A stretch of 32,915 nt of DNA from a virus (IMGVR_UViG_2526164631_000025:1-32915); one strand, 5' to 3'; counted from the first letter of the stretch, positions 9 through 22,909 are shown. Translations and numbers: made by a program. The notes: a model not told the origin generated them from the sequence alone.

Positions 9-2164
<2,156 letters not shown>

Positions 2165-2170
2165 TTTAAC

Positions 2171-2947
2171 GTGGAAAATACTAAAGCAATTCAATACCGC
2201 TTGCGTAATGGCCTGCTGGTGGCTGTTAACGCCGACATGTCACTGCCGTTTGACACGATTGAACGCACTATCATGACGTATCTCGGCTTTAATGAAGGGC
2301 TGAATGAAGAGCATGGCGTAGCTATATGGAGTGATGCAGAAAGCGGCGTTCATCGTTACATAACCGCCAGGGGCAAAGACTACTCTCTGGAAGAACTGTT
2401 TACCCTTGCACAGTCTTTCGAATGTGTAGCATTAGACATGTTTAATGATCCTGCTATAGCGCAACGACTTATACGCGAGCTTGGGCTATCCGTTACACCA
2501 ATTATCTTTAAGAATGGCAGCCTGACTGGCACATGGCGCGTAGAACGCATCTCAAACTACCTTCCATATAACCGACAGTTAAATGGAGTAATCTCCGGCG
2601 TTAATCAGCCCGTAGCGTGTGAAAATGTAAACCTGGTTGTCGCTGTTTTGGCAACCGCATGTCGTGTTATCGGTTTGGCTAAACAGGCATTTATTCATTT
2701 CCCAAATGGTGCAGAAGGTAGCGCAGAGATTATCGCGTGTGATTTCGAATTTACCTGGATGCTACGCGAATATCTGGACCAAACAGTATTCCGTGCCGAA
2801 GAACTGGATATGTATATAACGTCAACGATTCCAGACGATGTACGAGCAGAAGCAATCGCTACAGCCAGGGCGAAATGCCGTGCGGCGATTGCAGAACGGG
2901 CCAAAGAAGAACAGGCCAATGATACAGCGGCAGAAGAGGTGAAATAA
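2171..2947 (+). CDS. hypothetical protein (258 aa)
   Basis: GTG start with GGAG about 10 nt upstream; followed by a strong terminator; no recognisable motif. Confidence 0.6.
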   Translation: MENTKAIQYRLRNGLLVAVNADMSLPFDTIERTIMTYLGFNEGLNEEHGVAIWSDAESGVHRYITARGKDYSLEELFTLAQSFECVALDMFNDPAIAQRLIRELGLSVTPIIFKNGSLTGTWRVERISNYLPYNRQLNGVISGVNQPVACENVNLVVAVLATACRVIGLAKQAFIHFPNGAEGSAEIIACDFEFTWMLREYLDQTVFRAEELDMYITSTIPDDVRAEAIATARAKCRAAIAERAKEEQANDTAAEEVK

Positions 2948-2952
2948 CAAAA

Positions 2953-2980
2953 AGCCCGCTTGGTATGGCGGGCTTCTTTT
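2953..2980. terminator. bidirectional rho-independent terminator
   Basis: AGCCCGC-loop-GCGGGCT hairpin flanked by an A-run and TCTTTT between convergent genes. Confidence 0.6.
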
Positions 2981-3177
2981 CAAATACTGGAAGCACTTTG
3001 TCTGCTACCAAGCATTCTCTGTTTAAGCACAACCATTTCCTGACGGCATAACACAGCAATAGCGGTCCTGGCACCAATTTGCTTACCAACCAGGTATTGC
3101 TTTACCTCGCGGCGACTCACGCCATCAAGAAGCATCTTTAACGCTTCACGGGACAACTTGTTGTATTTACGTGCCAT
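2980..3177 (-). CDS. small basic protein (65 aa), translationally coupled downstream of doc
   Basis: ATG 4 nt after the doc stop with GGAG inside the doc 3' end; sequence MARKYNKLSREALKMLLDGVSRREVKQYLVGKQIGARTAIAVL suggests a possible HTH. Confidence 0.45.
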   Translation of the reverse strand: MARKYNKLSREALKMLLDGVSRREVKQYLVGKQIGARTAIAVLCRQEMVVLKQRMLGSRQSASSI

Positions 3178-3181
3178 TAAT

Positions 3182-3562
3182 CTACTCCGCAGAACCATAC
3201 AATCTACGTAACGTGTCGGCGACAGAAGATACAGATATCTCGCCAGTCGCAGCGCCTACAGTAAGGTCTGCCAGTTCAGGTGAATCAAATACCTGCACCC
3301 CGTTACGGCGTAGAAATAGCAGCGCACTGTTTAACGCGGTACGCTTATTGGCATCATTGAATATATGCCCTCTCGCTGTAGCCACCAGGTAGGTGGCGGA
3401 GACTTCGAAAAGGTCGGTGATCTCTTCGTAGGCAACTCTGGCCTGAACTCTCCCGATAATGGCCTCTGCCCTACCCGGATCAGACATTCCCGGCAGGCCG
3501 CCGTAGCGGTTTATATTCGCATCATGAAGCGCAATAAGTTCTTCCGGTGATATATGCCTCAT
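3182..3562 (-). CDS. doc: Doc toxin (Fic-fold kinase family), P1 Doc-like
   Basis: 126 aa, [17 protein letters not shown]...[23 protein letters not shown], near-identical over its length to my recollection of phage P1 Doc; start overlaps the phd stop (TAATG). Confidence 0.9.
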
Positions 3563-3783
3563 TATCGGTTAACCAGTTCCTTGTTGGTGGAGTCCAGGGT
3601 GTCAAACAGGGATGCAAATTCAGCATCCAGCGCCGCTTTTTTGTAGGCTTCGAAAGTAGCCTTGCTGACAATTACTGCTGGCTCACGGCCTCTGCGGGTG
3701 ATTTCAACCTCTTCCCCGGCCTCAACATTGTTGAGCACTTCAGAAAGTTTGCCGCGCGCGGTACGGAAGTTAATGGATTGCAT
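3562..3783 (-). CDS. phd: Phd antitoxin
   Basis: 73 aa from [32 protein letters not shown]..., matching P1 Phd as recalled; the ORF track start is a GTG two codons upstream. Confidence 0.9.
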
Positions 3784-3790
3784 AAACACC

Positions 3791-3830
3791 TCGTGTGCTC
3801 GTTATGTGTACGCAATTATAGGTTTTAATG
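3791..3830 (-). promoter_or_regulatory. putative phd-doc promoter/operator
   Basis: Minus-strand TATAAT (plus 3815-3820) followed by GTACAC/GCACAC half-palindromes and a GAGG SD; Phd/Doc autoregulation via operator palindromes is established for P1. Confidence 0.4.
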
Positions 3831-3891
3831 ATGCTGAATACCACTTCTTGGTGCCTTAAATCCTCGAGATGCAGTCTTGCAATTGCTGGGA

Positions 3892-4314
3892 TTAAGCAGA
3901 ATAAGTGGTTGGGATTCTGAGCAGTAATCCAATCTTGGCTATGTGCTCATATGGCAGCTCTCCGGTTTTACCATCATGTATCGAGGCTATCAGATTCAAT
4001 TCTTGCGCCGCTTTACGAATTTCAGTTTCTGATGGAACAAGGCGAAAACCGATGTGTAACATTTTGATATAGAAAGGTAATAGTTCGTACTTCACCCGTA
4101 ACTGTGCTGCCGCATCTTTCAAATCATGGATGATTTCTTGTTTTAAGTCAGAGCGGGGATTCGATAGCTTTGCTTGGTTAGACAATAACAGATGCGATAT
4201 TTCCCCCAACTGTTCCTTGAATGAAATGTAAGACTCAACCCCCTTGATGATGAGTCGACCTAGGACAAAAACGCTTACTCCAGTGACAACAGTGACAAAA
4301 GCAGACGAACTCAT
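3892..4314 (-). CDS. hypothetical membrane-anchored protein (140 aa), AT-rich gene between humD and phd
   Basis: N-terminal hydrophobic helix SSSAFVTVVTGVSVFVLGRLII; lower GC than flanks (rough estimate about 42%); minus-strand TATAAT about 20 nt upstream of the ATG. Confidence 0.55.
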   Translation of the reverse strand: MSSSAFVTVVTGVSVFVLGRLIIKGVESYISFKEQLGEISHLLLSNQAKLSNPRSDLKQEIIHDLKDAAAQLRVKYELLPFYIKMLHIGFRLVPSETEIRKAAQELNLIASIHDGKTGELPYEHIAKIGLLLRIPTTYSA

Positions 4315-4448
4315 TCGCGTACCTAAAAAGAGAATTATAACCTCATCTTATCTTCAAGTGAGTAACCGCGTCTAATGGGAGGAATCATTTAAATGGCCAG
4401 GGCGATATAGATCCAGTCATGCCTCTCTATGGTTTCTCTGAAAACAAA

Positions 4449-4838
4449 TCATATAGCAGGACTATCATCAAATTCACCGCCCCTGGCGTCATTGATAATG
4501 TGGGTGATCACACCAAAAACAGCATTACTGCCCGTGTATCCATCGTCATCTACTGGTAACGCCTCTTTCTTCCCGGTGCTTAAATCCTCCAGGTGCTGGC
4601 GCGGATACTTCCTGTATCTCTTTATGCGATATTCACCCTCCATAGCGCACACAAGCAGAGAACCATCAACCGGAGTAAGCGAGGAATCAACCACCAGCAA
4701 AGCACCCTGCAATATTCCCTCACGGTGATGGCTATCAGCTGCCCGCATGAAGTAGGTTGCTGATGGATGTCTAATTAGTTGCTGATCAAGAGAAATTCGG
4801 CTTTCAACATAATCCGCCGCAGGAGAAGGGAAGCCCAT
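4449..4838 (-). CDS. humD: UmuD'-like SOS mutagenesis protein (P1 HumD-like)
   Basis: 129 aa starting MGFPSPAADYVE, i.e. aligned to the post-cleavage N-terminus of UmuD; LexA box immediately upstream. Confidence 0.85.
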   Translation of the reverse strand: MGFPSPAADYVESRISLDQQLIRHPSATYFMRAADSHHREGILQGALLVVDSSLTPVDGSLLVCAMEGEYRIKRYRKYPRQHLEDLSTGKKEALPVDDDGYTGSNAVFGVITHIINDARGGEFDDSPAI

Positions 4839-4856
4839 AGCGTTTTACCTCAATGA

Positions 4857-4876
4857 TACTGTTTATTCATACAGTA
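4857..4876. promoter_or_regulatory. LexA (SOS) box overlapping the humD -10
   Basis: TACTGTTTATTCATACAGTA has CTGT-N8-ACAG; on the minus strand TTCACA-N18-TATACT promoter hexamers overlap it. Confidence 0.75.
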
Positions 4877-5028
4877 TACATTGAAAAGGCATAGTTTGTG
4901 AAAGCGGGGTTTGTAAGCAACACCGCTGGCGGCAAGGTCTACGTTCACCTTGTCTCGCTCTTCCTGGCTTTTAGCTGCTATATTTCGATCTGACACAAGA
5001 AACCTCCAGGAGTTAGTGGATCAGGCAC

Positions 5029-5379
5029 ATGCACAATAACGTTCTCAATGTTAGCCGTTCAATTCAGACAATCAGAGACTGCACCAGTGTGGTGGCATCA
5101 ATCCCATTGCGAAACAGCATAGACGAACTGCAAATTCGTGTATTGAATCTGAATCAGGCTAATAAGCAATTGCGCTTTATTTTGACGCTGAAAAGTGAAA
5201 CAGAGGGGATAAAGCACAGCGTAAAAGTGTTTTCTGAGGCCATTCTGCTTAATGGGAAGCTCCGGCATCTGGTAAGGCCAGAACGTCAATATCCTGACGT
5301 CCTGGCGCGTGAAAAAGACCTTCTTTCTGAAGTTCAGGATAGGGTGATCGATTTCGTCAAATGCTATCCCCTGCATTGA
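5029..5379 (+). CDS. hypothetical protein (116 aa), divergent from humD
   Basis: Single long ORF but no convincing SD at the proper distance; AT-rich. Confidence 0.35.
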   Translation: MHNNVLNVSRSIQTIRDCTSVVASIPLRNSIDELQIRVLNLNQANKQLRFILTLKSETEGIKHSVKVFSEAILLNGKLRHLVRPERQYPDVLAREKDLLSEVQDRVIDFVKCYPLH

Positions 5380-5648
5380 GGGCAGGTGTTCCCTTCCGCA
5401 AAGTAGGGAAAACTGCTATCAAGTTCATCACACCATCTGCGATGGTCGTAGCACCAAAACGCCTCCCACGGTGCACGGAAATACTTCATCCACCAGGACA
5501 CCCGATCAGGTATATCTGCTGGTGGCAGTTCTTCTGGCAATAATTTGCCTGATAATTCCCTTTCCGCCCGCGACAGCATTTTTTTGAGGCTCGCGTTCTC
5601 TTTTTCAAGCTCATCTACGCGCACCTGTAATTCAGCTTTCGTTGGCAT
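5364..5648 (-). CDS. hypothetical protein (about 94 aa), coiled-coil N-terminus and Cys/Trp-rich C-terminus
   Basis: ATG at 5648 preceded by GAGG; the ORF track start at 5729 is a TTG; ends ...GNTCPQCRG. Confidence 0.4.
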   Translation of the reverse strand: MPTKAELQVRVDELEKENASLKKMLSRAERELSGKLLPEELPPADIPDRVSWWMKYFRAPWEAFWCYDHRRWCDELDSSFPYFAEGNTCPQCRG

Positions 5649-5796
5649 GGTCCGCCTCATGCTTTTCAGCCACCAGCGGCAATAAAGCCTTGGCCATCCT
5701 ATGAACCAATAGTGCATCAATAATGCCAAGCGTATGCCCCGGCTTAATGTTTAATGCCGCCTCAAGGTGACACCTTTCCAAGCCACTTTTCTCGGC

Positions 5797-7161
5797 TTAT
5801 TTATGATGATCTGGTGTAATAACGTCGCCCAAAACACGGCTAATTCTTTCTCGTAATTGCTGGGTGCCAGCACTCTTGATCGCTGTATCGTGGAGACGGT
5901 TAACCAGTTCGCGATAAACATGCGGCTTAATTCGGATACGTTCACCGGTGACGCCCTTTCCTGGCGCTGGCACCGAACTATCCGGAATATCCGGATAGTT
6001 GCCAGCCAGTCTACGCAAAACGGCCTTAACAGCCTCAATACGGTCATCATCGCAATTTTCCAGCGTATCTATGCGATCGAGCATGATGATGGCGTTATCA
6101 ATATCAGGATTGCCGGTCCACTCATTACCGCGATTGGATTCGGCAGCCTGGTTGCCGCGTACTGGTTGATTATCGGCTTTACCCAGTCTGTCGTTGCTGC
6201 ATGAATGCCCTTCCAGCAAGGCCAATGCTTGTCGCATGAAATACGCAATATGTTTGCCGTGGTAATCGTCTTCATCGATGTGAAAAGCGATACTGCGGAT
6301 GTATTCAATTGCGTTTTCAATGGCCTCCGGCGTTATCGGCGCTGACATATTTTGATTTTGGAGTGCCAAGACGCGGCTGGCATCCTCAACACCTTTAACG
6401 GCATCTGCGCAGTAGTTATAGCGATTGCATTCCACTAACTTCTGCTTGAGATTTTCAATTGCTTGCGCGACATCAGCCTGTATTTCTGGAACTGGCGGAA
6501 CGGCTGTTTGCTCTCGAACGTCATTAGTCGCTATCGGTTCTGCTGCCAACTGACTGGCATATTTGTTAATGGTAACGATAAGCTCTTGCTCAGCCTCATC
6601 CAGACAATCACCGATACCTCGCCTGTCACCGTCAAAATCATCGAAATCGGCACGAATCTTGGCAACCTTCTGGATTGCGGACAACACCTCACTAGGAATT
6701 ACCGGATAGTTGGTTGACGTTTCCGCGATTTCCCGAAAATTATTGGTTGACGAATTCTTGTTTTCCCGAAAGTTTCCGGACTGAAGCATGGCGGCGCGGC
6801 AGGCGTTCCATATTTCGGCAGCAATATCGCGCTCGCTATCGGTTAATTTGTACGTGGAAACATAGCCAGAGAGCATTTCTACGTTTTCCGGAGTTGCTTC
6901 TTCCGGCACTACCGGCGCTGGCGGGGCGATGCGTCCAAGCAACTTATTTACCTCTTTCGCCATCGCGTCATATTTATCTAAATGGCGATTAGCTTCTAAG
7001 CAGACTCGGCGCATCTGATCTGAGTTAACTCGTTTAACTGGATCTGCTTCCAGCGATGCCAGCGCAATCCGTGCCAGTTCCATTTGTTCACCACGGGTAA
7101 GCCCGTTTTCAAGCGGATTTTTAATGAACAATTCAATACGTTCTTTGGTAATAGTGGTCAT
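5797..7161 (-). CDS. hypothetical protein (454 aa)
   Basis: ATG with AAGGA SD; C-terminal 37 aa (KPHVYRELVNRLHDTAIKSAGTQQLRERISRVLGDVI) are homologous to an internal segment of the DUF4406-like protein. Confidence 0.7.
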   Translation of the reverse strand: MTTITKERIELFIKNPLENGLTRGEQMELARIALASLEADPVKRVNSDQMRRVCLEANRHLDKYDAMAKEVNKLLGRIAPPAPVVPEEATPENVEMLSGYVSTYKLTDSERDIAAEIWNACRAAMLQSGNFRENKNSSTNNFREIAETSTNYPVIPSEVLSAIQKVAKIRADFDDFDGDRRGIGDCLDEAEQELIVTINKYASQLAAEPIATNDVREQTAVPPVPEIQADVAQAIENLKQKLVECNRYNYCADAVKGVEDASRVLALQNQNMSAPITPEAIENAIEYIRSIAFHIDEDDYHGKHIAYFMRQALALLEGHSCSNDRLGKADNQPVRGNQAAESNRGNEWTGNPDIDNAIIMLDRIDTLENCDDDRIEAVKAVLRRLAGNYPDIPDSSVPAPGKGVTGERIRIKPHVYRELVNRLHDTAIKSAGTQQLRERISRVLGDVITPDHHK

Positions 7162-7171
7162 TTGTTAGTCC

Positions 7172-7927
7172 TTAAACTGCTAGTTGCAATTGCATTTCAA
7201 AGCGGTCGCGTTGTTCACAATACGCAAGAGAACCAGGGCTATTGTGTGCCTCAATCCGTTCTACCATTAATGCTGCGCGTGTCTCTTTACTTGCAGGTGC
7301 ATAAGCCCCAGACCAGGCTTTATCAATACCGATGTTTCGAGCGACGTTCGTACTATCTGCGCTGGCTAAGGGTAATTTTGTGAATATCAGCGGATTTAAC
7401 ATGCGCAATCCATGTAGTTTCGTAACCGGCTGACCATGCCCATCAACAATGTGACGAATCAGGTCTTTCATTCTGGCTACCGCAAGAGTTGGGCGCTTTA
7501 CGTCATAGTCGCCACAACTACCGATAGCCACTCGCGGAAGCTCATTGCACAAATGAATAAATCGCTCGTCACTTTCATTCATGTGCCACACTGGAACGCC
7601 AGCTAGTTTTCCGTGAGGCCACTCATTCAGAAGCGCATCATTTTCCTCCTCTCCGCCATCAATAACATCCGGGATAATGGCAAAATCGAATCCTGGGTGA
7701 TTCTTCCAGCGAGCAACAAACTCGTAGTAATCGCTCCAGTCGATTTTGTTTTTGCCAGCTGCTTTCCAGGCGGTGAATGCACCGTTGTCCAGCGCGAACG
7801 ACTGACAGTATTCAGCCGCGAGATTGATCTGGCCTGAATGCGCAAAACTGATAAACGCATGTCGCCCTTTCCATGCTCTCATTGCGCACGTATCAGGAGT
7901 AATAGGCCCACCGTGGTAGTGAATCAT
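7172..7927 (-). CDS. hypothetical protein (about 251 aa)
   Basis: ATG at 7927 one nt after the upstream stop, preceded by a perfect AAGGAG; N-terminus MIHYHGGPITPD. Confidence 0.6.
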   Translation of the reverse strand: MIHYHGGPITPDTCAMRAWKGRHAFISFAHSGQINLAAEYCQSFALDNGAFTAWKAAGKNKIDWSDYYEFVARWKNHPGFDFAIIPDVIDGGEEENDALLNEWPHGKLAGVPVWHMNESDERFIHLCNELPRVAIGSCGDYDVKRPTLAVARMKDLIRHIVDGHGQPVTKLHGLRMLNPLIFTKLPLASADSTNVARNIGIDKAWSGAYAPASKETRAALMVERIEAHNSPGSLAYCEQRDRFEMQLQLAV

Positions 7928-7928
7928 C

Positions 7929-8444
7929 TCACTCTCCTTTGATGCGAATGCCAGTAGCGCGGATTGCATCGATGACTTCAGAAACTTTGTATGCCATTAC
8001 CGTTTGGTAATCATCGTGAAAATCTGTTCGATGAAGCATGCTGCTACGTTCCGGGAGCAGTATTTCCCGCTCCTCCAGTTCAGCAATACGCTTGCTCCCA
8101 TCAGAGATAACGCCTTCGTAATATTCACGCTGCTCGTTGAGTTTTGATTTTGCTGCTTCAAGCTCAACACGCAGTTTCCCTACCGTTAGCGCAATATCCT
8201 CGTTCTCCTGGTCGCGGCGTTTGATGTATTGCTGGTTTCTTTCCCGTTCATCCAGCAGCGCCAGCACGGTTTCTGGTCCGGTCAGAAATTTGAAGGCGTT
8301 GAGCGCATCAATATCCACACCGTAATCTTTAAGTTCCTGTTCACTTAACAAATCATCATCAACTGGCAACATTAACAGGCGTTCCATTGCTGGAGTTGCA
8401 CGTTCTGCCGCCTCACGCAGTGCCTGGTAATTAATTTTGCTCAC
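7929..8444 (-). CDS. Ead/Ea22-like coiled-coil protein
   Basis: N-terminus MSKINYQALREAAERATP and a coiled-coil block LTVGKLRVELEAAKSKL shared with paralogs in this window. Confidence 0.6.
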   Translation of the reverse strand: MSKINYQALREAAERATPAMERLLMLPVDDDLLSEQELKDYGVDIDALNAFKFLTGPETVLALLDERERNQQYIKRRDQENEDIALTVGKLRVELEAAKSKLNEQREYYEGVISDGSKRIAELEEREILLPERSSMLHRTDFHDDYQTVMAYKVSEVIDAIRATGIRIKGE

Positions 8445-8781
8445 TGACTGCCTCCTTCTTAATCAGTTTACACAGGTGCTCCACAGCCACAGAGAGTGCA
8501 TCCACCGCTCGTTTATCCAGACGCGGGGCCAGAGCAAGCAGTTCATTTATTGCAATCTGAATACCATGCTCCGCCGCCAGCGCCGCGCGATTGCTCTCCA
8601 GCTCTGCAATTTGGCACATGGCATCAATATTTTTGTCCTCCAGGCGCTTAATTTCGCCTAGGAGTGCCAGTGCCACCGATGGCGTGAACGCCATACGAAA
8701 CGCCACAAAATTTTGATGCATAGGTTCTGTTTCTACTGCAACTGCCGCATCTCGCAGTGCCTGATAGTCAATTTCGCTCAC
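8431..8781 (-). CDS. Ea22-like coiled-coil paralog (about 116 aa)
   Basis: GTG start with GGAGA SD; SEIDYQALRDAAV and IAELESNRAALAAEHG modules. Confidence 0.5.
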   Translation of the reverse strand: MSEIDYQALRDAAVAVETEPMHQNFVAFRMAFTPSVALALLGEIKRLEDKNIDAMCQIAELESNRAALAAEHGIQIAINELLALAPRLDKRAVDALSVAVEHLCKLIKKEAVSEQN

Positions 8782-9529
8782 TGGTTGTCTCCACAAAATT
8801 CAATGCTGCATGCTCCTGTTTAATTCCCATACGCTCTAATGCGATACGAAAAATTTCTGGATCTTTTTCTATTCCTGTAAATCGGCGCCCTGATTGTTGG
8901 CACGCAACGCCAGTAGTTCCGCTACCCATAGTGAAATCCAACACTGTGTCGCCAATATTGCTATATGTCTCAATCAGATATCTCACCAGAGCCAGTGGCT
9001 TTTGTGTTGAATGAAGTGCCTGCTTTTGCTTGTCGCTGGAGAATTTCTGCACGTCTCTCGGATAGCGACTTGTTGAATCGTAAACGACCTTTTTCAGCGC
9101 ATCGCCATATACATCAGTATTCAGCCTACCTCTTGTTGAGGTTTTTCTGGCGTGCCCATACGTCATCTGTGGGTTGTATGTCGGTTGCTTTCTGTAAAAA
9201 ACTTCAATATTTTCATGCGCTCTTAAAGGTTGTTTTTTTGCGTTCAAAAATCCTGTCGCGTGTGGCTTTTCCCAAATCCATTCTGTTTTCCAGTCACGAA
9301 GATTGCTGTTGACCAGCACGCTGGTAAAAGGCTGAGCGGAAAACAGAACAATTGCAGCGTTCGGTTTGGAAATACGGTAAATCTGCTTCCACATCAACTG
9401 CAGGTCGAGAACAGAATCCCAGCGACACCGAGTTGTTCCATATGGAATATCGGCACATACAAGATCTACGGAGTTGCTGGCGATTTGCGGAAAGATGTCA
9501 AAGCAATCTGCGTTGTGAAGGCAAATCAT
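8768..9529 (-). CDS. orphan DNA methyltransferase, beta-class N6-adenine/N4-cytosine type
   Basis: Motif IV-like DIPYG near the N-terminus and motif I DFTMGSGTTGVA near the C-terminus (beta-class order); no adjacent restriction endonuclease. Confidence 0.8.
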   Translation of the reverse strand: MICLHNADCFDIFPQIASNSVDLVCADIPYGTTRCRWDSVLDLQLMWKQIYRISKPNAAIVLFSAQPFTSVLVNSNLRDWKTEWIWEKPHATGFLNAKKQPLRAHENIEVFYRKQPTYNPQMTYGHARKTSTRGRLNTDVYGDALKKVVYDSTSRYPRDVQKFSSDKQKQALHSTQKPLALVRYLIETYSNIGDTVLDFTMGSGTTGVACQQSGRRFTGIEKDPEIFRIALERMGIKQEHAALNFVETTSERN

Positions 9530-9718
9530 TCACCCACCCCACTCATCACAATATACTTCGACAGGCGTTTTCCCTGCTTCATAGCCATCTCGCCATGCTT
9601 CTGCATCATAAAAGCTTCCGCCGCGCCCAGAACTGTAACCATTGCCGTTATGGCAATGGAATGAGACGTTATTACCCACAGTTTCACGCAAGCACATCAT
9701 GTAAAAGCGGTTATTCAC
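9530..9718 (-). CDS. hypothetical small protein (62 aa)
   Basis: Tightly packed in the operon; no motif. Confidence 0.4.
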   Translation of the reverse strand: MNNRFYMMCLRETVGNNVSFHCHNGNGYSSGRGGSFYDAEAWRDGYEAGKTPVEVYCDEWGG

Positions 9719-10004
9719 TAGTTACCTCCGCTTCCCACGTTTTCAGACTTTCACCACAGAACGGGCAAAATGAAACTCGAATAGGCGATTTAGAAAATTC
9801 ACCAGACCGCAGCATGATCAGGTCTTGTGAATGAATTAATTCATGGTTATAGATTTTGTATTTCAGCAGACCTTTTCGCGTCGTGTATTCAGCATCCTGC
9901 TCCAGAGATTGTGCCAGCGCCGCGCACGGTTCTATTTTTCTGTCATTAATCAAACAAGTGGAGATTCTGCACTTTGCAGCTCCGTCACCGTTACCTTGAC
10001 TCAT
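9711..10004 (-). CDS. hypothetical protein (97 aa) with C-terminal CPFCG zinc-ribbon-like motif
   Basis: ORF in operon context; Cys pairs. Confidence 0.45.
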   Translation of the reverse strand: MSQGNGDGAAKCRISTCLINDRKIEPCAALAQSLEQDAEYTTRKGLLKYKIYNHELIHSQDLIMLRSGEFSKSPIRVSFCPFCGESLKTWEAEVTSE

Positions 10005-10017
10005 TGTGTTGTTCCCA

Positions 10018-11013
10018 TCAGTTATTGAACGTGATCACTCCGCGCTCGATGGCGAAGTCGAAAAGCTGGTTAGCGGCTACGTAAAGGCGTATGCCATGTG
10101 CTTTTTCCCATGCCCGGACATCGTTTTCTGCGCTTCTGGCGCAGTCATCGCAAAGAGGAACAGCCCAGCGGTCGTGTTCGTTTAACGAGCGGGCGCGGTA
10201 CATGAATGGGTGATTAACCTTGCCGCCGCAGCCTACACACGGGCGAGACACCACAAACCGGAGATAAGCCGGGCTTTTTCCGAGTAAGGTTTTTGGACGG
10301 CGCATATATAGGAGGCCAGAATCTTCATCGACGGACAGATTGACGATCTGCTCTGCGGAAATATCCACCAGCTCGCGGGTACTATGCTCCCAGGTAATAT
10401 CCGACTCTTTCAGAGTGCCGGTAGGGATTTCAGTTTTTGGCTGACAAAATGCAATGCGACCAGCTTCATCAGGCAGTTCGTCTTTAAGATTCCGGCGAAT
10501 GGCCCAAAAGGTGAGTTCAACCATGCTCAGATCGCGATCTGGCGGAAGTTTTAACTCGCTGGCAGCCCAGTTCATAATCCAGTTGGCGCGATTCAGTGAC
10601 AGTTGGTCTTCCAGCTTGCCGTATCCCTTCATCATGTATTCCGCATCATGCTTCCAGCACAGGCGAACGGCAGAACCGTTATAGAAATGGGTGGTTAGCT
10701 GGTGGCTGCAATCGCGCTTATCATGCGCCTGGCAATCGTGAATGTTGGTGCTAACCCAGTGAACGAGAGAATCCTCACCACCTAACGCGTTAAATACACG
10801 CTCACTTTGAAAAAAGGGTGCCAGTGACTGGTTGGCAACCAGTGAATAATTCAGGTCAACGACACCATCAGGGGTGTTTTCAGCCTGTTCACGCGGCAAT
10901 GGGGATATAAGAAAACGGCGTCCTGCGCCGATGTAATTGCTGGTGGGCTTATCTACAGGAAAGACAGCCACACCAGTTTCATTTACGACATATGGGGTGA
11001 TTATTGCACTCAT
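10018..11013 (-). CDS. hypothetical protein (331 aa) with C-terminal Cys cluster
   Basis: CVGCGG...H...PLCDDCAR motif near the C-terminus; preceded by an intergenic region carrying the GTTAGAAAACTAAAATCAATG motif. Confidence 0.55.
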   Translation of the reverse strand: MSAIITPYVVNETGVAVFPVDKPTSNYIGAGRRFLISPLPREQAENTPDGVVDLNYSLVANQSLAPFFQSERVFNALGGEDSLVHWVSTNIHDCQAHDKRDCSHQLTTHFYNGSAVRLCWKHDAEYMMKGYGKLEDQLSLNRANWIMNWAASELKLPPDRDLSMVELTFWAIRRNLKDELPDEAGRIAFCQPKTEIPTGTLKESDITWEHSTRELVDISAEQIVNLSVDEDSGLLYMRRPKTLLGKSPAYLRFVVSRPCVGCGGKVNHPFMYRARSLNEHDRWAVPLCDDCARSAENDVRAWEKAHGIRLYVAANQLFDFAIERGVITFNN

Positions 11014-11111
11014 AATGCATACCGACTCTGTTTTGTTCCGAGCGGTAAAATAATATGTTAGAAAACTAAAATCAATGTTCTAACGCAATTTTGAGTGCGT
11101 AAATGATTTGA

Positions 11112-11804
11112 TCAGACTTTAAGCTGCCCTCCCTTCACCTGCATTAGCGTCAGATTTCCGCAAAAAACCGCGCCCGTGTCTATGTAGTGCTGATTCCAGT
11201 ATGCTTTTGGTCTTCGTACCGATGTGTGCCCAAAGATAAAGCGATCTGCGCCTGTGATTTCTCCACCAATGCCATCTATCGAATCACCGACGCGACTGCG
11301 CGACCAGACAACATCAAAAAGCGACACATCCTTACCGAACTGGTACTCTCCACCTGGATAGTCGGCATGGGCTATAACGATAGTTTCATGCCCGGTGTTC
11401 AACTCAATGATATATGGCAGACGCTTTACCAGCTCCACCAGCGCCTTGGCTAATATTTCCTGATCAGTGTCCAGCATGAAGAACCATTGTCCGCCATTCA
11501 TTAGCCAGTTATTCACGTTGCCATCAGGACTTAACGCATCAAGCATCAACCGCTCATGGTTCCCCATTACTGCCCTGAACCAGGGCATCTGCAATAGTTC
11601 CAGACATTCGACATTTTCAGTACCGCGATCGATAAGGTCGCCAACCGATATCAGTAAATCCTGCGCCGGGTCAAAATCCACACGATGGAGTTCGGACATC
11701 AGTCTGGTGTAGCAACCATGCAGATCACCAACAACCCATATGTTTCTATAGCCAGAACCATCAATACGGCTATATAAATTCACTTCATGCAGAGCCTGGG
11801 TCAT
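11112..11804 (-). CDS. Ser/Thr protein phosphatase (lambda PPase / PrpA-like metallophosphoesterase)
   Basis: GDLHGC, GDLIDRG and GNHE metallophosphatase motifs. Confidence 0.85.
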
Positions 11805-12112
11805 GCAGCAACCTTCTCACGCAGCCAGATACAAACCGGACCATCTTCAGTGTCATGAATAGAGCCAACAAACCAGCCTTCACCCTCTGGTCGCTCCGGT
11901 TCCCAGGCGGCAATATCGGGACCAGCTGCGTCCAGATCAAAATCATCTTCATCCATACTGCGAATAGTCCACTGAAGATTATTTTCCTTCATCCAGGCGT
12001 CAAATTCCTCAGTAGAAATATATTCACGACCTGCGCAAAACTTCTCATACTCCGGATGTGTCCAGCAGCCATATTCATCACGTTCTACCGGCATTTCTTT
12101 AATGATGCTCAC
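11801..12112 (-). CDS. hypothetical acidic protein (103 aa)
   Basis: Overlapping stop/start coupling in the operon. Confidence 0.45.
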
Positions 12113-12333
12113 TCTTCATCCTCCAAGTCGGCAACGGCCTCCATCACATCAGAACCGCGAATAACCTCAAAAGCACGGCAGGCCATTTCAAACACCTGTT
12201 GTTCTTGCGGATGCGGTGACTCCCAATACTTAAAACCAGGTCGATGCTCGTAACCCATCATGGAATAAAAATCGCCAGCAAGTTCAATCGCGGCATCAAC
12301 AAGTTCGCGATTTGTCATCGTCTGTTCTGTCAT
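12109..12333 (-). CDS. hypothetical protein (74 aa)
   Basis: Coupled ORF. Confidence 0.4.
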   Translation of the reverse strand: MTEQTMTNRELVDAAIELAGDFYSMMGYEHRPGFKYWESPHPQEQQVFEMACRAFEVIRGSDVMEAVADLEDEE

Positions 12334-12605
12334 TTGGTTTTCTCCTGTCTGAACATCACTATCATCAGGTCGCCTTTTGTCGCTATTCTGGCTGTTGTGC
12401 CTGGTTCAATGCGGCTAAGCTCAAATGCGTCATAGAACGCTTCTAATGCCTTCTGGCGTAGTTCCTGTTTGCGCCGTTTTTTCCACTCTTTTAGGAAAAT
12501 GGAACCCAGCCATCCCCATGTACGGGACATGATGTAAAGCCAACCGAGAAGTGCCAGACCGGTATTTAGGGCCGTATCGATCGTTATCGTGGTGTCGATA
12601 TTCAC
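12330..12605 (-). CDS. hypothetical protein (91 aa) with a hydrophobic segment
   Basis: Coupled ORF; LALLGWLYIMSRTWGWLGSIF. Confidence 0.4.
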   Translation of the reverse strand: MNIDTTITIDTALNTGLALLGWLYIMSRTWGWLGSIFLKEWKKRRKQELRQKALEAFYDAFELSRIEPGTTARIATKGDLMIVMFRQEKTK

Positions 12606-12850
12606 TGTGGTGGCTCCTGCTTTTCTGCCTTTAATACCATGCGAGAACCATCATCCAGCTCCCAATTAATTTCACCGCCTTCAGCCATGACTAGATGCCA
12701 AACGAGTTGTGCGGCCTCGTTGGTTACATCACGACCGCGATCATTGCCGACACGACGTTTTGTTCCATCCCCTAAGTCACGCATTTTTGCCAACACGATG
12801 GTTTTTGATAGCGGTGAAAAACCAAGCTGTAGTCGTGCGGTATTACTCAC
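12602..12850 (-). CDS. hypothetical protein (82 aa)
   Basis: Coupled ORF. Confidence 0.4.
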   Translation of the reverse strand: MSNTARLQLGFSPLSKTIVLAKMRDLGDGTKRRVGNDRGRDVTNEAAQLVWHLVMAEGGEINWELDDGSRMVLKAEKQEPPQ

Positions 12851-13488
12851 TGTTTGCCTCCTTTTCGAAGCTGGGCAGCGAACCTATCAGCTGCATCCGC
12901 GCAAGCAGAAGCAACGGAATCAAAAAATGGATCATCTCCGGTATCGCGCATCGTCAAAGCGAATGCCTCCACCCCTTGTGCCTGTATTTCTACAAGGTAT
13001 GCCTTAGATGTAGTGCTTTTCGCCTCGCCTAATTCGTTATGAGCGATGTTCGCTATACATGCGATGTCTATATCTGGATGATTAATTGGGCAATGGCTAA
13101 GAATTGCCTCAAGTGCTGCTTTTTTGCTTTGGCATTCCGCCACCATCGCCCCGCAATTGCTTTCATATTCGGCAATACGCTGTTTAGCAGCCTCCAGCTC
13201 AACACGCAGCTTCTCAAGCGTTAGAGCCATCTCCATGTTCTCGTCCAGCAGTTCAATCACATCAGGATCGCTATCATCAACTACTGTTATGCGCGATTTT
13301 TTGTAATGCTCGTCAGCATAAGTTCGTCCAGTTTTGAAGCATCCGTCGTCCTCCATGCCGGAACAGGCATAAACAACATGTGATCCAGATATGCGCTGCA
13401 TTGACATTTCCTCGCCACAAACAGAGCATTTAGGCGCTGGTTTCGGTGAAAAACGTTCACGTAACGTATGATAGTAAAGCTCGCTCAC
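12847..13488 (-). CDS. Ea22-like coiled-coil paralog with N-terminal Cys-rich region
   Basis: LEKLRVELEAAKQRIAEYE module and C-terminal ...AAQLRKGGKQ shared with neighbours. Confidence 0.5.
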   Translation of the reverse strand: MSELYYHTLRERFSPKPAPKCSVCGEEMSMQRISGSHVVYACSGMEDDGCFKTGRTYADEHYKKSRITVVDDSDPDVIELLDENMEMALTLEKLRVELEAAKQRIAEYESNCGAMVAECQSKKAALEAILSHCPINHPDIDIACIANIAHNELGEAKSTTSKAYLVEIQAQGVEAFALTMRDTGDDPFFDSVASACADAADRFAAQLRKGGKQ

Positions 13489-14282
13489 TGGCTGCCTCCT
13501 TTGCGAAGCTGTTCAGCGATATCTTCGAGAACGCCATCAGAGAATGAGCGGTCAAAATCGCCTTCCCGCGCATTAGCCATAAACTCAGTAGAGGTAAGAA
13601 TCATCCGGGCAATATCCGCGGCGTTCTTCGCAGTATCATCAATAAAACCAGCTTCCCAAGCAGCCAGCATTCTGTTCGCCACAAAGTAAGCGCCCTCCTT
13701 GCGTGCTTCAGTCTTCACTTCATCCAGGAAAGTGTCGGTCGCAGGAGTGGTTTTTTGTGGTGATAGGGCGATACGAATTGTTTCAAGAGCTGGATCTATT
13801 TCCACTGTTGGCACTTTGATAAAACCAAGCTGCACGCCATTCATAATGAACGTGCGGCGATCCTCACATATCGCCTTCAGTCTCGCATTCTCCGCAGCCA
13901 GCGCCGCGCGATTACCCTCCAGCTCTGCAATGCGCTGTTTTGCGGTATCAAGTTCAATCGATAATTTTTCCAACTGCTCTTTATGCTTCTTATATTCCTG
14001 ATATGCGTGCCAGGACTGACCTTTGCGCACACTATCAGTAATATCAGTAATCTGTTCTGGTGTTAGCGTGGTCAGTGGCTGTGCTGGGAAAATCAGCACT
14101 TTCCCGGAATCCCAATCAAAACCAGCGTGAATTGACTGAACCTCAACTGAGGGTGTTGAACCAATGCTGCCAGGCGAATGAATAACGATTGTTACATCCA
14201 TATCGCGACGATGGCTGTGGTTGTTGGACAAAATACGATTCACCAACTCAGAAAATTTGGAGAATTTCATGCGGAGCCTCAA
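13485..14282 (-). CDS. Ea22-like coiled-coil paralog (265 aa)
   Basis: IELDTAKQRIAELEGNRAALAAENARLK and C-terminal ...EQLRKGGSQ modules. Confidence 0.5.
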   Translation of the reverse strand: MRLRMKFSKFSELVNRILSNNHSHRRDMDVTIVIHSPGSIGSTPSVEVQSIHAGFDWDSGKVLIFPAQPLTTLTPEQITDITDSVRKGQSWHAYQEYKKHKEQLEKLSIELDTAKQRIAELEGNRAALAAENARLKAICEDRRTFIMNGVQLGFIKVPTVEIDPALETIRIALSPQKTTPATDTFLDEVKTEARKEGAYFVANRMLAAWEAGFIDDTAKNAADIARMILTSTEFMANAREGDFDRSFSDGVLEDIAEQLRKGGSQ

Positions 14283-14689
14283 TATGCAAAATAGACCGTT
14301 GCCACGCCGTTATAGTGATCAAACGATACGGCGTTTACTTCATAACTGGCCGGGAGCTTCGAGCCAAGAACGTATCCGGGCCACGTTTTCCATGGAATTT
14401 CTCTATTCTCACTACCCCCATATACCGTACATCCAAGTGAACCTACAGCTTCATTAGAACGCGTGCCGCACGTTATGAATCCCAGATTTTGCTTACTGCT
14501 CTTAATGGTGATTGAGTGAACGCTGGCTGATGCATTAGCAGCACGCTGTGCCTGTTGGTTTGCGATATTCGCAGAGTTCGCAGCAGCTACAGCAGCCGTA
14601 GTCGCGGCGGTAGAGGCTACAATAGCTGCTGAAGCATGCACTTGTTGGATATTCACCAACAATGCCGCGACAAAAATCATCTTCTTCAC
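14279..14689 (-). CDS. small secreted protein (136 aa) with signal peptide
   Basis: MKKMIFVAALLVNIQQVHA signal-like N-terminus followed by an Ala/Ser/Thr-rich region. Confidence 0.5.
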   Translation of the reverse strand: MKKMIFVAALLVNIQQVHASAAIVASTAATTAAVAAANSANIANQQAQRAANASASVHSITIKSSKQNLGFITCGTRSNEAVGSLGCTVYGGSENREIPWKTWPGYVLGSKLPASYEVNAVSFDHYNGVATVYFAY

Positions 14690-20591: not shown

Positions 20592-21245
20592 ATGGAAAAG
20601 ATCGCAATATTCAGCCTGACCACCAGCAAGCCTCAAATGCTCACTGCAATACTGAAAGACGGTGCTCTCATTATTAACGAAGTAAAACCCCTTCCCGCGT
20701 CAGCATTGGAGCAAAAGCAAAAAATTCCTCCAGCCATAGCAGCCCTGCGGAAAAGCAAATTTAAGGTACTGGTAGACGAAATTACGCCAACGATCTCCGC
20801 TGGCACCGGAGCAAGCCAGGTGACTCTCAAGACCCGTCATGCCGATGGCAGAGCAGCAATCATCGTCGGGATGGAAAGATACAGAGAGTTAAAACTCCAG
20901 AAGCTATTATCCCTGCCGCAAAATAACAAAGGTGCTTTCGAAATCCCCGACTCTATCGTTGATACCGAATACAACGGTAACGGAGAAGAAGTCTACAGGG
21001 TGAACTGGCAGGATATCAGGCCGGAGCATATTCTGATGATCCTGTGTTGCTACGCGACCGTATACCACAACGTTGCCAGTGCGGATTACGTAGAGCAGAT
21101 GACCGGTACAGTCGAGAAAGAGCAAAAAACAGGCATACTCGCTTCGTTCCTTTCCATTATTGGGCATGAAAAAGTTAAAGCAGGCACCTCCCAGCCAAAG
21201 TCACTGGCTGGGAAAGAAGTTGATGAAGATACCGTGATACTTTGA
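20592..21245 (+). CDS. hypothetical protein (217 aa)
   Basis: GGAGGAAGG SD 5 nt before ATG; the ORF track start at 20550 lies inside the terminator. Confidence 0.6.
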   Translation: MEKIAIFSLTTSKPQMLTAILKDGALIINEVKPLPASALEQKQKIPPAIAALRKSKFKVLVDEITPTISAGTGASQVTLKTRHADGRAAIIVGMERYRELKLQKLLSLPQNNKGAFEIPDSIVDTEYNGNGEEVYRVNWQDIRPEHILMILCCYATVYHNVASADYVEQMTGTVEKEQKTGILASFLSIIGHEKVKAGTSQPKSLAGKEVDEDTVIL

Positions 21246-21374
21246 TCACATTAGTAGCTTTGTTAACTCCCTCAACACCAGGTAGAAGAGTAACAAAAAT
21301 ATTGATGCCAGTATTTGAGTGGTCAATGAGGCGTTCATAAACAGATCAATAAGCTTTAACAATTCTAGAATAAC

Positions 21375-21379
21375 ATCCA
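21375..21379. repeat. IS2 5-bp target site duplication ATCCA (left copy; right copy at 22711-22715)
   Basis: Identical ATCCA directly flanking both IS2 termini. Confidence 0.7.
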
Positions 21380-21470
21380 TAGACTGGCCCCCTGAATCTC
21401 CAGACAACCAGTATCACTTAAATAAGTGATAGTCTTAATACTAGTTTTTAGACTAGTCATTGGAGAACAG

Positions 21471-21836
21471 ATGATTGATGTCTTAGGGCCGGAGAAACGC
21501 AGACGGCGTACCACACAGGAAAAGATCGCAATTGTTCAGCAGAGCTTTGAACCGGGGATGACGGTCTCTCTCGTTGCCCGGCAACATGGTGTAGCAGCCA
21601 GCCAGTTATTTCTCTGGCGTAAGCAATACCAGGAAGGAAGTCTTACCGCTGTCGCCGCCGGAGAACAGGTTGTTCCTGCCTCTGAACTTGTTGCCGCCAT
21701 GAAGCAGATTAAAGAACTCCAGCGCCTGCTCGGCAAGAAAACGATGGAAAATGAACTCCTCAAAGAAGCCGTTGAATATGGACGGGCAAAAAAGTGGATA
21801 GCGCACGCGCCCTTATTGCCCGGGGATGGGGAGTAA
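21471..21836 (+). CDS. insC: IS2 transposase OrfA (InsC)
   Basis: 121 aa [41 protein letters not shown]... Confidence 0.95.
21788..21794 (+). promoter_or_regulatory. IS2 programmed -1 ribosomal frameshift heptamer A_AAA_AAG
   Basis: Heptamer in the insC frame at the insC/insD overlap. Confidence 0.8.
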
Positions 21837-22699
21837 GCTTAGTCAGCCGTTGTCTCCGGGTGTCGCGTGCGCAGTTGCACGTCATTCTCAGACGAACCGA
21901 TGACTGGATGGATAGCCGCCGCAGTCGTCACACTGATGATACGGATGTGCTTCTCCGTATACACCATGTTATCGGAGAGCTGCCCACGTATGGTTATCGT
22001 CGGGTATGGGCGCTGCTTCGCAGACAGGCAGAACTTGATGGTATGCCTGCGATCAATGCCAAACGTGTTTACCGGATCATGCGCCAGAATGCGCTGTTGC
22101 TTGAGCGAAAACCTGCTGTACCGCCATCGAAACGGGCACATACAGGCAGAGTGGCCGTGAAAGAAAGCAATCAGCGATGGTGCTCTGACGGGTTCGAGTT
22201 CTGCTGTGATAACGGAGAGAGACTGCGTGTCACGTTCGCGCTGGACTGCTGTGATCGTGAGGCACTGCACTGGGCGGTGACTACCGGCGGCTTCAACAGT
22301 GAAACAGTACAGGACGTCATGCTGGGAGCGGTGGAACGCCGCTTCGGCAACGATCTTCCGTCGTCTCCAGTGGAGTGGCTGACGGATAATGGTTCATGCT
22401 ACCGGGCTAATGAAACACGCCAGTTCGCCCGGATGTTGGGACTTGAACCGAAGAACACGGCGGTGCGGAGTCCGGAGAGTAACGGAATAGCAGAGAGCTT
22501 CGTGAAAACGATAAAGCGTGACTACATCAGTATCATGCCCAAACCAGACGGGTTAACGGCAGCAAAGAACCTTGCAGAGGCGTTCGAGCATTATAACGAA
22601 TGGCATCCGCATAGTGCGCTGGGTTATCGCTCGCCACGGGAATATCTGCGGCAGCGGGCTTGTAATGGGTTAAGTGATAACAGATGTCTGGAAATATAG
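21794..22699 (+). CDS. insD: IS2 transposase OrfB (InsD, DDE integrase core; expressed as an InsCD fusion)
   Basis: 301-aa frame matching IS2 InsD as recalled. Confidence 0.9.
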
Positions 22700-22909
22700 G
22701 GGCAAATCCAATCCATGTCATTCACTCCGTTTAATTTTTAATCTAATTCCAGCAAATGAAGCTGGCCCTCGCATAAAGATTAATGAAAGTCACTTGTCAC
22801 CAGTGAGGGGATTTATGAACCACATCCCCCTGAACTGGTGGCCTGTCTGTTTCTCGCATTTCACACCCTGCATACAGTTTCCCCCAGGTTATGACTGAGG
22901 GGCTTTGTT

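Follow-up and report, generated by a model that had tools for sequence, protein, structure and literature searches.

A predicted LexA-controlled, pre-truncated UmuD′ homologue (humD) in a D6-like plasmid prophage of the P1 family

The closest described counterpart of the locus analysed here is humD of phage P1, a LexA-regulated SOS gene (PMC9603915) whose product has been characterised as an already-activated, shorter UmuD (PMC7092418) and which is not essential for P1 lytic growth (PMC10695390). In the title of their paper, McLenigan et al. (1999, J Bacteriol 181:7005) call HumD a functional homologue of UmuD′ and credit it with facilitating SOS mutagenesis. The P1 protein (AAQ14073; P1 genome, Lobocka et al. 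2004) is 129 residues long and starts at the equivalent of UmuD G25, which in UmuD is the residue following the RecA-mediated Cys24/Gly25 cleavage site (PMC13076628); it has no umuC, and its gene is adjacent to phd-doc. Related stand-alone genes are found in N15 (gp26), phiKO2 (gp23), HK639 (gp28) and Hafnia phage yong1, where they encode proteins with the same truncated start (M/V-GFPSPA) and an EFDDxPxx tail, have a LexA box just upstream and lie next to tail-fibre, sop or int genes. Several of these orphan homologues have exchanged the catalytic Ser for Thr or Tyr and the catalytic Lys for Met or Arg. Shared LexA control of a divergent neighbour has been annotated twice in this group: in the P1 and P7 GenBank records the LexA binding site is placed "in the regulatory region of lxr and humD", and in the phiKO2 record the site (1455-1475) is common to gp23 and the divergent, dinI-like gp22. 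SOS control is thus bidirectional in some humD modules, such as that of phiKO2, in contrast to the module described below.

The stretch of DNA analysed here (the window, 32.9 kb) carries a locus of this kind. In a megablast search with positions 4300-5500, phage D6 (MF356679), in which humD is orf108, was 98.9% identical over the full region and RCS47 was 97.5% identical with one indel, while P1, P7 and SJ46 aligned over the humD ORF only, at 94-96%. The window as a whole is a mosaic relative of D6, and apart from IS positions it is 99.97-100% identical to NZ_CP066033.1, a 97,453-bp E. coli plasmid that constitutes a non-mobilisable D6-like plasmid prophage; over positions 1962-14313 of the window, the two are 100% identical, including the deletion allele of hot discussed below. 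We assign the locus to a D6-like plasmid prophage of the P1 family, as its humD gene. The gene order in the D6 record is cre-like ... pdcA-doc-phd-orf109-humD-hot(48 aa)-orf106, and the corresponding features of the window are:

4449-4838, minus strand: humD, 129 aa, ATG start; predicted HumD-family protein, equivalent to UmuD′ without the N-terminal arm
4857-4876, no strand assigned: predicted LexA (SOS) box, TACTGTTTATTCATACAGTA, 17 of 20 matches to the 20-mer consensus
4873-4902, minus strand: sigma-70-like predicted promoter, TTCACA (-35, 4902-4897), 18-nt spacer, TATACT (-10, 4878-4873)
4850-4996, minus strand: truncated hot (Pol III theta homologue), 48-aa ORF of which only residues ~5-33 are theta-like
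4910-4915, minus strand: site of the deletion, marked by one TACAAA hexamer in place of the two that RCS47 carries 217 bp apart
5029-5379, plus strand: divergent ORF, 116 aa; D6 orf106 / RCS47 p0100, phrog_2594

The window protein and P1 HumD are identical at 124 of 129 positions (96%), with all five differences in the C-terminal third; two (C126S and V128A) fall in the tail, which reads EFDDCPVI in P1 and EFDDSPAI in the window. On the NCBIfam equivalog NF051876 ("HumD family translesion DNA polymerase"), which has a curated whole-protein cut-off of 120 bits, the window protein scored 213.8 bits over positions 1-128 of 129, and E. coli UmuD stayed below the cut-off with 98.7 bits. The UmuD model NF007621, in turn, gave the window protein 87.3 bits, under its cut-off of 110. 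Compared with E. coli UmuD, the protein shows 42% identity over UmuD residues 25-139, a common fold and the same LexA operator geometry, but it lacks the 24-residue arm, is not encoded in an operon with umuC and carries a 10-residue acidic C-terminal extension. The AlphaFold2 model built from a shallow alignment was poor (pLDDT 53), whereas a more diverse alignment yielded a usable model (pLDDT 73), for which the first Foldseek matches were 8GMT, 1UMU and 1AY9. The equivalents of the UmuD catalytic residues Ser60 and Lys97 are kept as Ser36 and Lys73, and the GDSM motif of UmuD is reduced to D-SH.

The N-terminus of the protein reads M-GFPSPAADYVE (the ORF begins MGFPSPAADYVE). When searched against PDB sequences with phmmer (E about 3e-23), G2 paired both with the first residue of 1UMU, a UmuD′ crystal chain to which the protein aligned over residues 1-114, and with G25 of full-length UmuD (8GMT_B). 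The match to PHROG 811 spanned profile positions 21-140 of 140, with the arm region missing. The in-frame sequence 5′ of humD reads ...E*TVSLR*NA-MGFPS, in which stop codons occur 3 and 9 codons before the ATG, and it offers no other in-frame start. Because of the stop three codons upstream and the lack of another start, an N-terminal extension is impossible, and the predicted product cannot carry an N-terminal arm. The original prediction had described a pre-truncated UmuD′ analogue starting at the post-cleavage residue, and this description is borne out by the pairing of G2 with UmuD G25, the NF051876 score and the upstream stops; a longer upstream start with a cleavable arm, the condition under which it would have failed, is ruled out by those same stops.

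It had further been proposed that humD has no umuC partner and would need the UmuC of the host. A tblastn search with E. coli UmuC (translated from MG1655) detected no homologue in the 32.9-kb window (best E = 0.45), which agrees with this proposal, and the same held when the search for a polymerase V catalytic subunit was extended to the rest of the element, as represented by the whole D6 genome and the whole plasmid NZ_CP066033.1 (best E = 0.45); nor is any umuC-like gene annotated in D6. With no cognate umuC, HumD would therefore depend on host UmuC.

The predicted LexA box, which on the humD strand reads TACTGTATGAATAAACAGTA, ends 18 nt before the ATG. This geometry matches that in E. coli, where the umuDC operator stops 19 nt short of the umuD ATG. 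The P1 box, a homologous 20-mer with two substitutions compared to that of the window, lies as far from its start codon as the window box does. The site at 4857-4876 is the sole one in the window with three or fewer mismatches from the 20-mer LexA consensus, and 0 of 100 shuffled controls yielded any such site. The 16-mer core CTGT-N8-ACAG was found in two copies (0.35 expected), the second of which (1433-1448) lies inside a copy of IS100, has no consensus flanking bases and was taken as a chance occurrence. We infer that LexA binds the predicted operator at 4857-4876. The box was expected to lie over the -10 of a TTCACA-N18-TATACT promoter, and the same hexamers were recovered, with an overlap of 4 nt between box and -10. 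This predicted promoter has 10 of 12 matches and was the sole promoter-like site in a promoter scan of 4300-5500, although by itself the match is no better than chance (1.6 expected). What gives it weight is its position, with the -10 overlapping the box, and its conservation: the promoter is identical in D6 and RCS47, and P1 has a counterpart at the same position (TTGCAC-N18-TGTACT). Since the match is not above chance and the P1 record puts its predicted PhumD much further upstream, the assignment of the humD start to this promoter is tentative. A Shine-Dalgarno sequence (GAGG, 4848-4851, minus strand) lies 9 nt 5′ of the humD ATG and is kept in P1, RCS47 and D6.

Upstream of humD the window departs from P1. 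Where P1 has the divergent lxr followed by hot, the window has no lxr, a 48-aa remnant of hot that abuts the promoter, and an unrelated divergent ORF of 116 aa. The stretch between humD and the latter is not simply intergenic: it holds the truncated hot, an ORF that had been overlooked and that is annotated as hot-like in D6. This ORF matches PF06440 at profile positions 3-31 of 70 and reaches 40.3 bits on the NCBIfam theta model, against a cut-off of 97, indicating that a full-length theta domain (about 70-76 residues) is absent; the database label "Pol III theta subunit" is therefore misleading. In RCS47, hot encodes 83 aa, and alignment with it shows a clean 217-bp deletion in the window that took the 3′ two-thirds of hot, its stop codon and the hot-humD spacer and that ends 7 nt upstream of the humD -35. 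As a consequence, the last ~16 codons of the 48-aa ORF consist of humD promoter and operator DNA, and transcripts from the truncated hot could run into humD past the operator. Deleted and intact hot alleles are both present among PLSDB plasmids, and such 48-mers form a family of their own, PHROG 27764. Upstream of the hot remnant, the search for a P1-type late promoter gave no convincing match to the annotated LPhot and LPpac -22 elements.

The 116-aa ORF is present at 5029-5379 on the plus strand, as had been described. It has no Pfam or NCBIfam match, and its equation with P1 lxr was rejected, the ORF corresponding instead to D6 orf106 and RCS47 p0100. The suggestion that it might share SOS control with humD fared less well: no plus-strand promoter-like site was found near the box in the scan of 4300-5500, the hot remnant intervenes, and the ORF is not lxr. 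Moreover, in RCS47, which has the ancestral arrangement, a full-length hot lies between the box and the ORF, leaving the box about 370 bp from the ORF, beyond the hot 3′ end. Shared SOS control of the 116-aa ORF is thus not supported by the sequence.

The arrangement of humD was further compared among nine phage homologues, namely those of the window, P1, RCS47, N15 (gp26), phiKO2 (gp23), HK639, Cyrano and Hafnia phage yong1, as well as a frameshifted copy from BTP1. The start M/V-[GE]FPSPA was found in all nine, down to 44% identity, with the N15, phiKO2, HK639 and yong1 proteins at 43-67%. A LexA box with 2-4 mismatches was likewise found in 9 of 9; its end lies 14-19 nt ahead of the start codon, except in phiKO2, where the distance is 44 nt. 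Calculated against P1, RCS47 and Cyrano, the dN/dS of humD was 0.07-0.11, by which measure the gene is under purifying selection. Given this conservation in nine homologues and the low dN/dS, the truncated start and the LexA operator form a selected unit, one that has spread over several unrelated temperate phage groups.

We consider it highly probable that humD of the window encodes a LexA-controlled, pre-truncated UmuD′ of a D6-like, P1-family prophage that partners host UmuC in a polymerase-V-like enzyme. In the undamaged cell, host LexA would occupy the operator over the humD -10 and keep expression low. Upon DNA damage, RecA* would trigger LexA self-cleavage and humD would be transcribed. 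As the 24-residue arm is absent, HumD should require no RecA*-dependent activation and would skip the slow RecA*-dependent cleavage that delays UmuD activation. Because the element is without umuC, HumD is expected to pair with the UmuC of the host, and a HumD dimer together with host SOS-induced UmuC and RecA-ATP would form a hybrid, polymerase-V-like translesion enzyme, the outcome being more damage tolerance and mutagenesis in the lysogen. P1 HumD is reported to complement UmuD′ in vivo, to form dimers and to bind both UmuC and RecA filaments; it is also reported to be poorly expressed from its native context, with good complementation only at high copy number. By analogy, we infer that the window allele would behave like P1 HumD. 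This main reading restates the published picture of P1 HumD and is in that sense already known.

At the level of the family, a search of 1.84 billion cluster representatives returned 3,511 relatives, and 44 full-length relatives aligned with the window protein fell into two classes:

N-truncated (24 sequences): Ser60 equivalent kept in 5, Lys97 equivalent kept in 7; 9-11 residues past the UmuD C-terminus in 15
With N-arm (20 sequences): Ser60 equivalent kept in 18, Lys97 equivalent kept in 18; acidic-tail motif in 0

The decay of the Ser/Lys dyad in the truncated forms is consistent with relaxed selection on self-cleavage after loss of the arm. The C-terminus of the protein differs along the same line. 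The tail of window HumD, GGEFDDSPAI, extends 10 residues past the UmuD end (residues 120-129, window about 4449-4481), and its acidic motif, [ED][FW]D[DE]xP..-COOH, was present in about 13 of the 24 N-truncated representatives and in none of the 20 with an arm; a regular-expression count over 66 arm-bearing representatives also gave 0. The motif ends 107 of the 120 closest relatives, most commonly as EFDDCPVM, and is kept at 44% overall identity although the loop before it is hypervariable. In the AlphaFold2 model the tail is of low confidence, with residues 126-129 below a pLDDT of 50. It resembles the tip of E. coli SSB (...MDFDDDIPF), the Pro-Phe end of which is matched exactly in few representatives (P0124, ...DDTPF, and P0167, ...NLPF). 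A search for a description of the HumD tail or of SSB-Ct mimics in the searchable literature found none. The acidic C-terminal tail of RecA has been found to clash with bound UmuD′ (2026 paper, PMC13076628), which offers no more than suggestive context. Speculatively, and with a low probability in our estimation, the HumD tail ([ED]F-D-[DE]-x-P-x-[IMLF]-COOH), which is probably disordered, may be an SSB-Ct-like docking peptide or a RecA-directed acidic tail. If so, phage HumD would bring its own recruitment signal, by which host UmuC could be guided either to RecA filaments or to places where SSB interacts with its partners, or the tail could instead compete with SSB for those partners; in each case phages would have a new level at which to control translesion synthesis.

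The tail also bears on a different view of the protein, according to which HumD chiefly modulates host replication or the SOS response via protein contacts, with RecA*, SSB-interacting proteins, Pol III subunits or heterodimers with host UmuD/UmuD′, to the benefit of the prophage during induction, mutagenesis being a by-product of over-expression. An acidic tail that continues past the UmuD fold in truncated but not in arm-bearing forms, that is retained next to a hypervariable loop, that recalls the SSB tip and that is modelled with low confidence would suit such a role. So would the position of humD in P1 and RCS47 beside hot, another replisome-subunit mimic, and its dispensability for lytic growth (PMC10695390). 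The likeness to SSB is nevertheless one of a short motif, in which the exact Pro-Phe end is rare, and the title of McLenigan et al. (1999), by naming HumD a functional UmuD′ homologue, indicates that a role in polymerase V is at any rate open to it. We regard a chiefly modulatory function as unlikely, and the pol-V-like partnership with host UmuC as the preferred reading.

That humD might instead be a decaying passenger, a moron remnant with no current function in the element, could be suspected from the truncation of the neighbouring hot by a deletion in the same lineage, from the frameshifted humD pseudogene of the P22-like BTP1 and from the high variability of the hot-lxr-humD region among P1-like plasmid prophages (PMC9603915). 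Yet the humD ORF of the window is intact and retains its ribosome-binding site, predicted promoter and operator, the deletion in hot stopped 7 nt short of the -35, the dN/dS of 0.07-0.11 points to constraint, and temperate phage groups that are unrelated to one another share the module. Decay is accordingly a very improbable account of this gene. The match to PF00717 (Pfam), the kept Ser36 and Lys73 and the database names "LexA family transcriptional regulator" and "S24 family peptidase" would suggest a repressor of the LexA type or an S24 peptidase still active in self-cleavage. This is the least credible identity and is refuted as regards the repressor by domain content, since the protein has no DNA-binding domain (28.3 bits on the LexA model TIGR00498 against a cut-off of 110.95, matching only profile positions 90-168, the C-terminal domain), and it has no substrate arm to cleave and belongs to a truncated family in which the dyad is not conserved.

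A translesion accessory factor that comes already activated and is placed under the SOS switch of the host is a textbook curiosity of phage P1, and the locus itself holds no new principle but mainly confirms a D6/P1-type plasmid prophage. As E. coli and Salmonella commonly carry D6/P1-type elements, a constitutively "cleaved" UmuD′ under LexA would be a widespread prophage route to increased damage-induced host mutagenesis. Potential novelty is limited to the family level, that is, to the C-terminal tail and the dyad decay in truncated forms.

Several further observations concern the architecture of the element. Between humD and phd-doc the window carries a 140-aa ORF (3892-4314, minus strand; D6 orf109, phrog_7512) with a hydrophobic N-terminus; this insertion is missing from P1, and in both P1 and RCS47 the phd promoter directly follows humD. 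Compared with NZ_CP066033.1, the window differs in IS100 and IS2 positions only. The IS100 copy (IS21-family) at 9-1962 is 99.6% identical to the IS100 located elsewhere in NZ_CP066033.1, and it abuts plasmid position 12352, inside the DUF2829 gene; given this different insertion site, the window derives from a sibling plasmid. The IS2 copy at 21380-22710 (region about 20942-22710) lies ~440 bp off the IS2 of NZ_CP066033.1 and in the opposite orientation, while the flanks of the region are otherwise 99.97-100% identical. Finally, positions 6500-9714, including a 454-aa ORF (5797-7161, minus strand), gave no megablast match to D6 and are identical to NZ_CP066033.1, representing a mosaic replacement of the pmgU-like region in a part of the genome reported as hypervariable in P1-like plasmid prophages.
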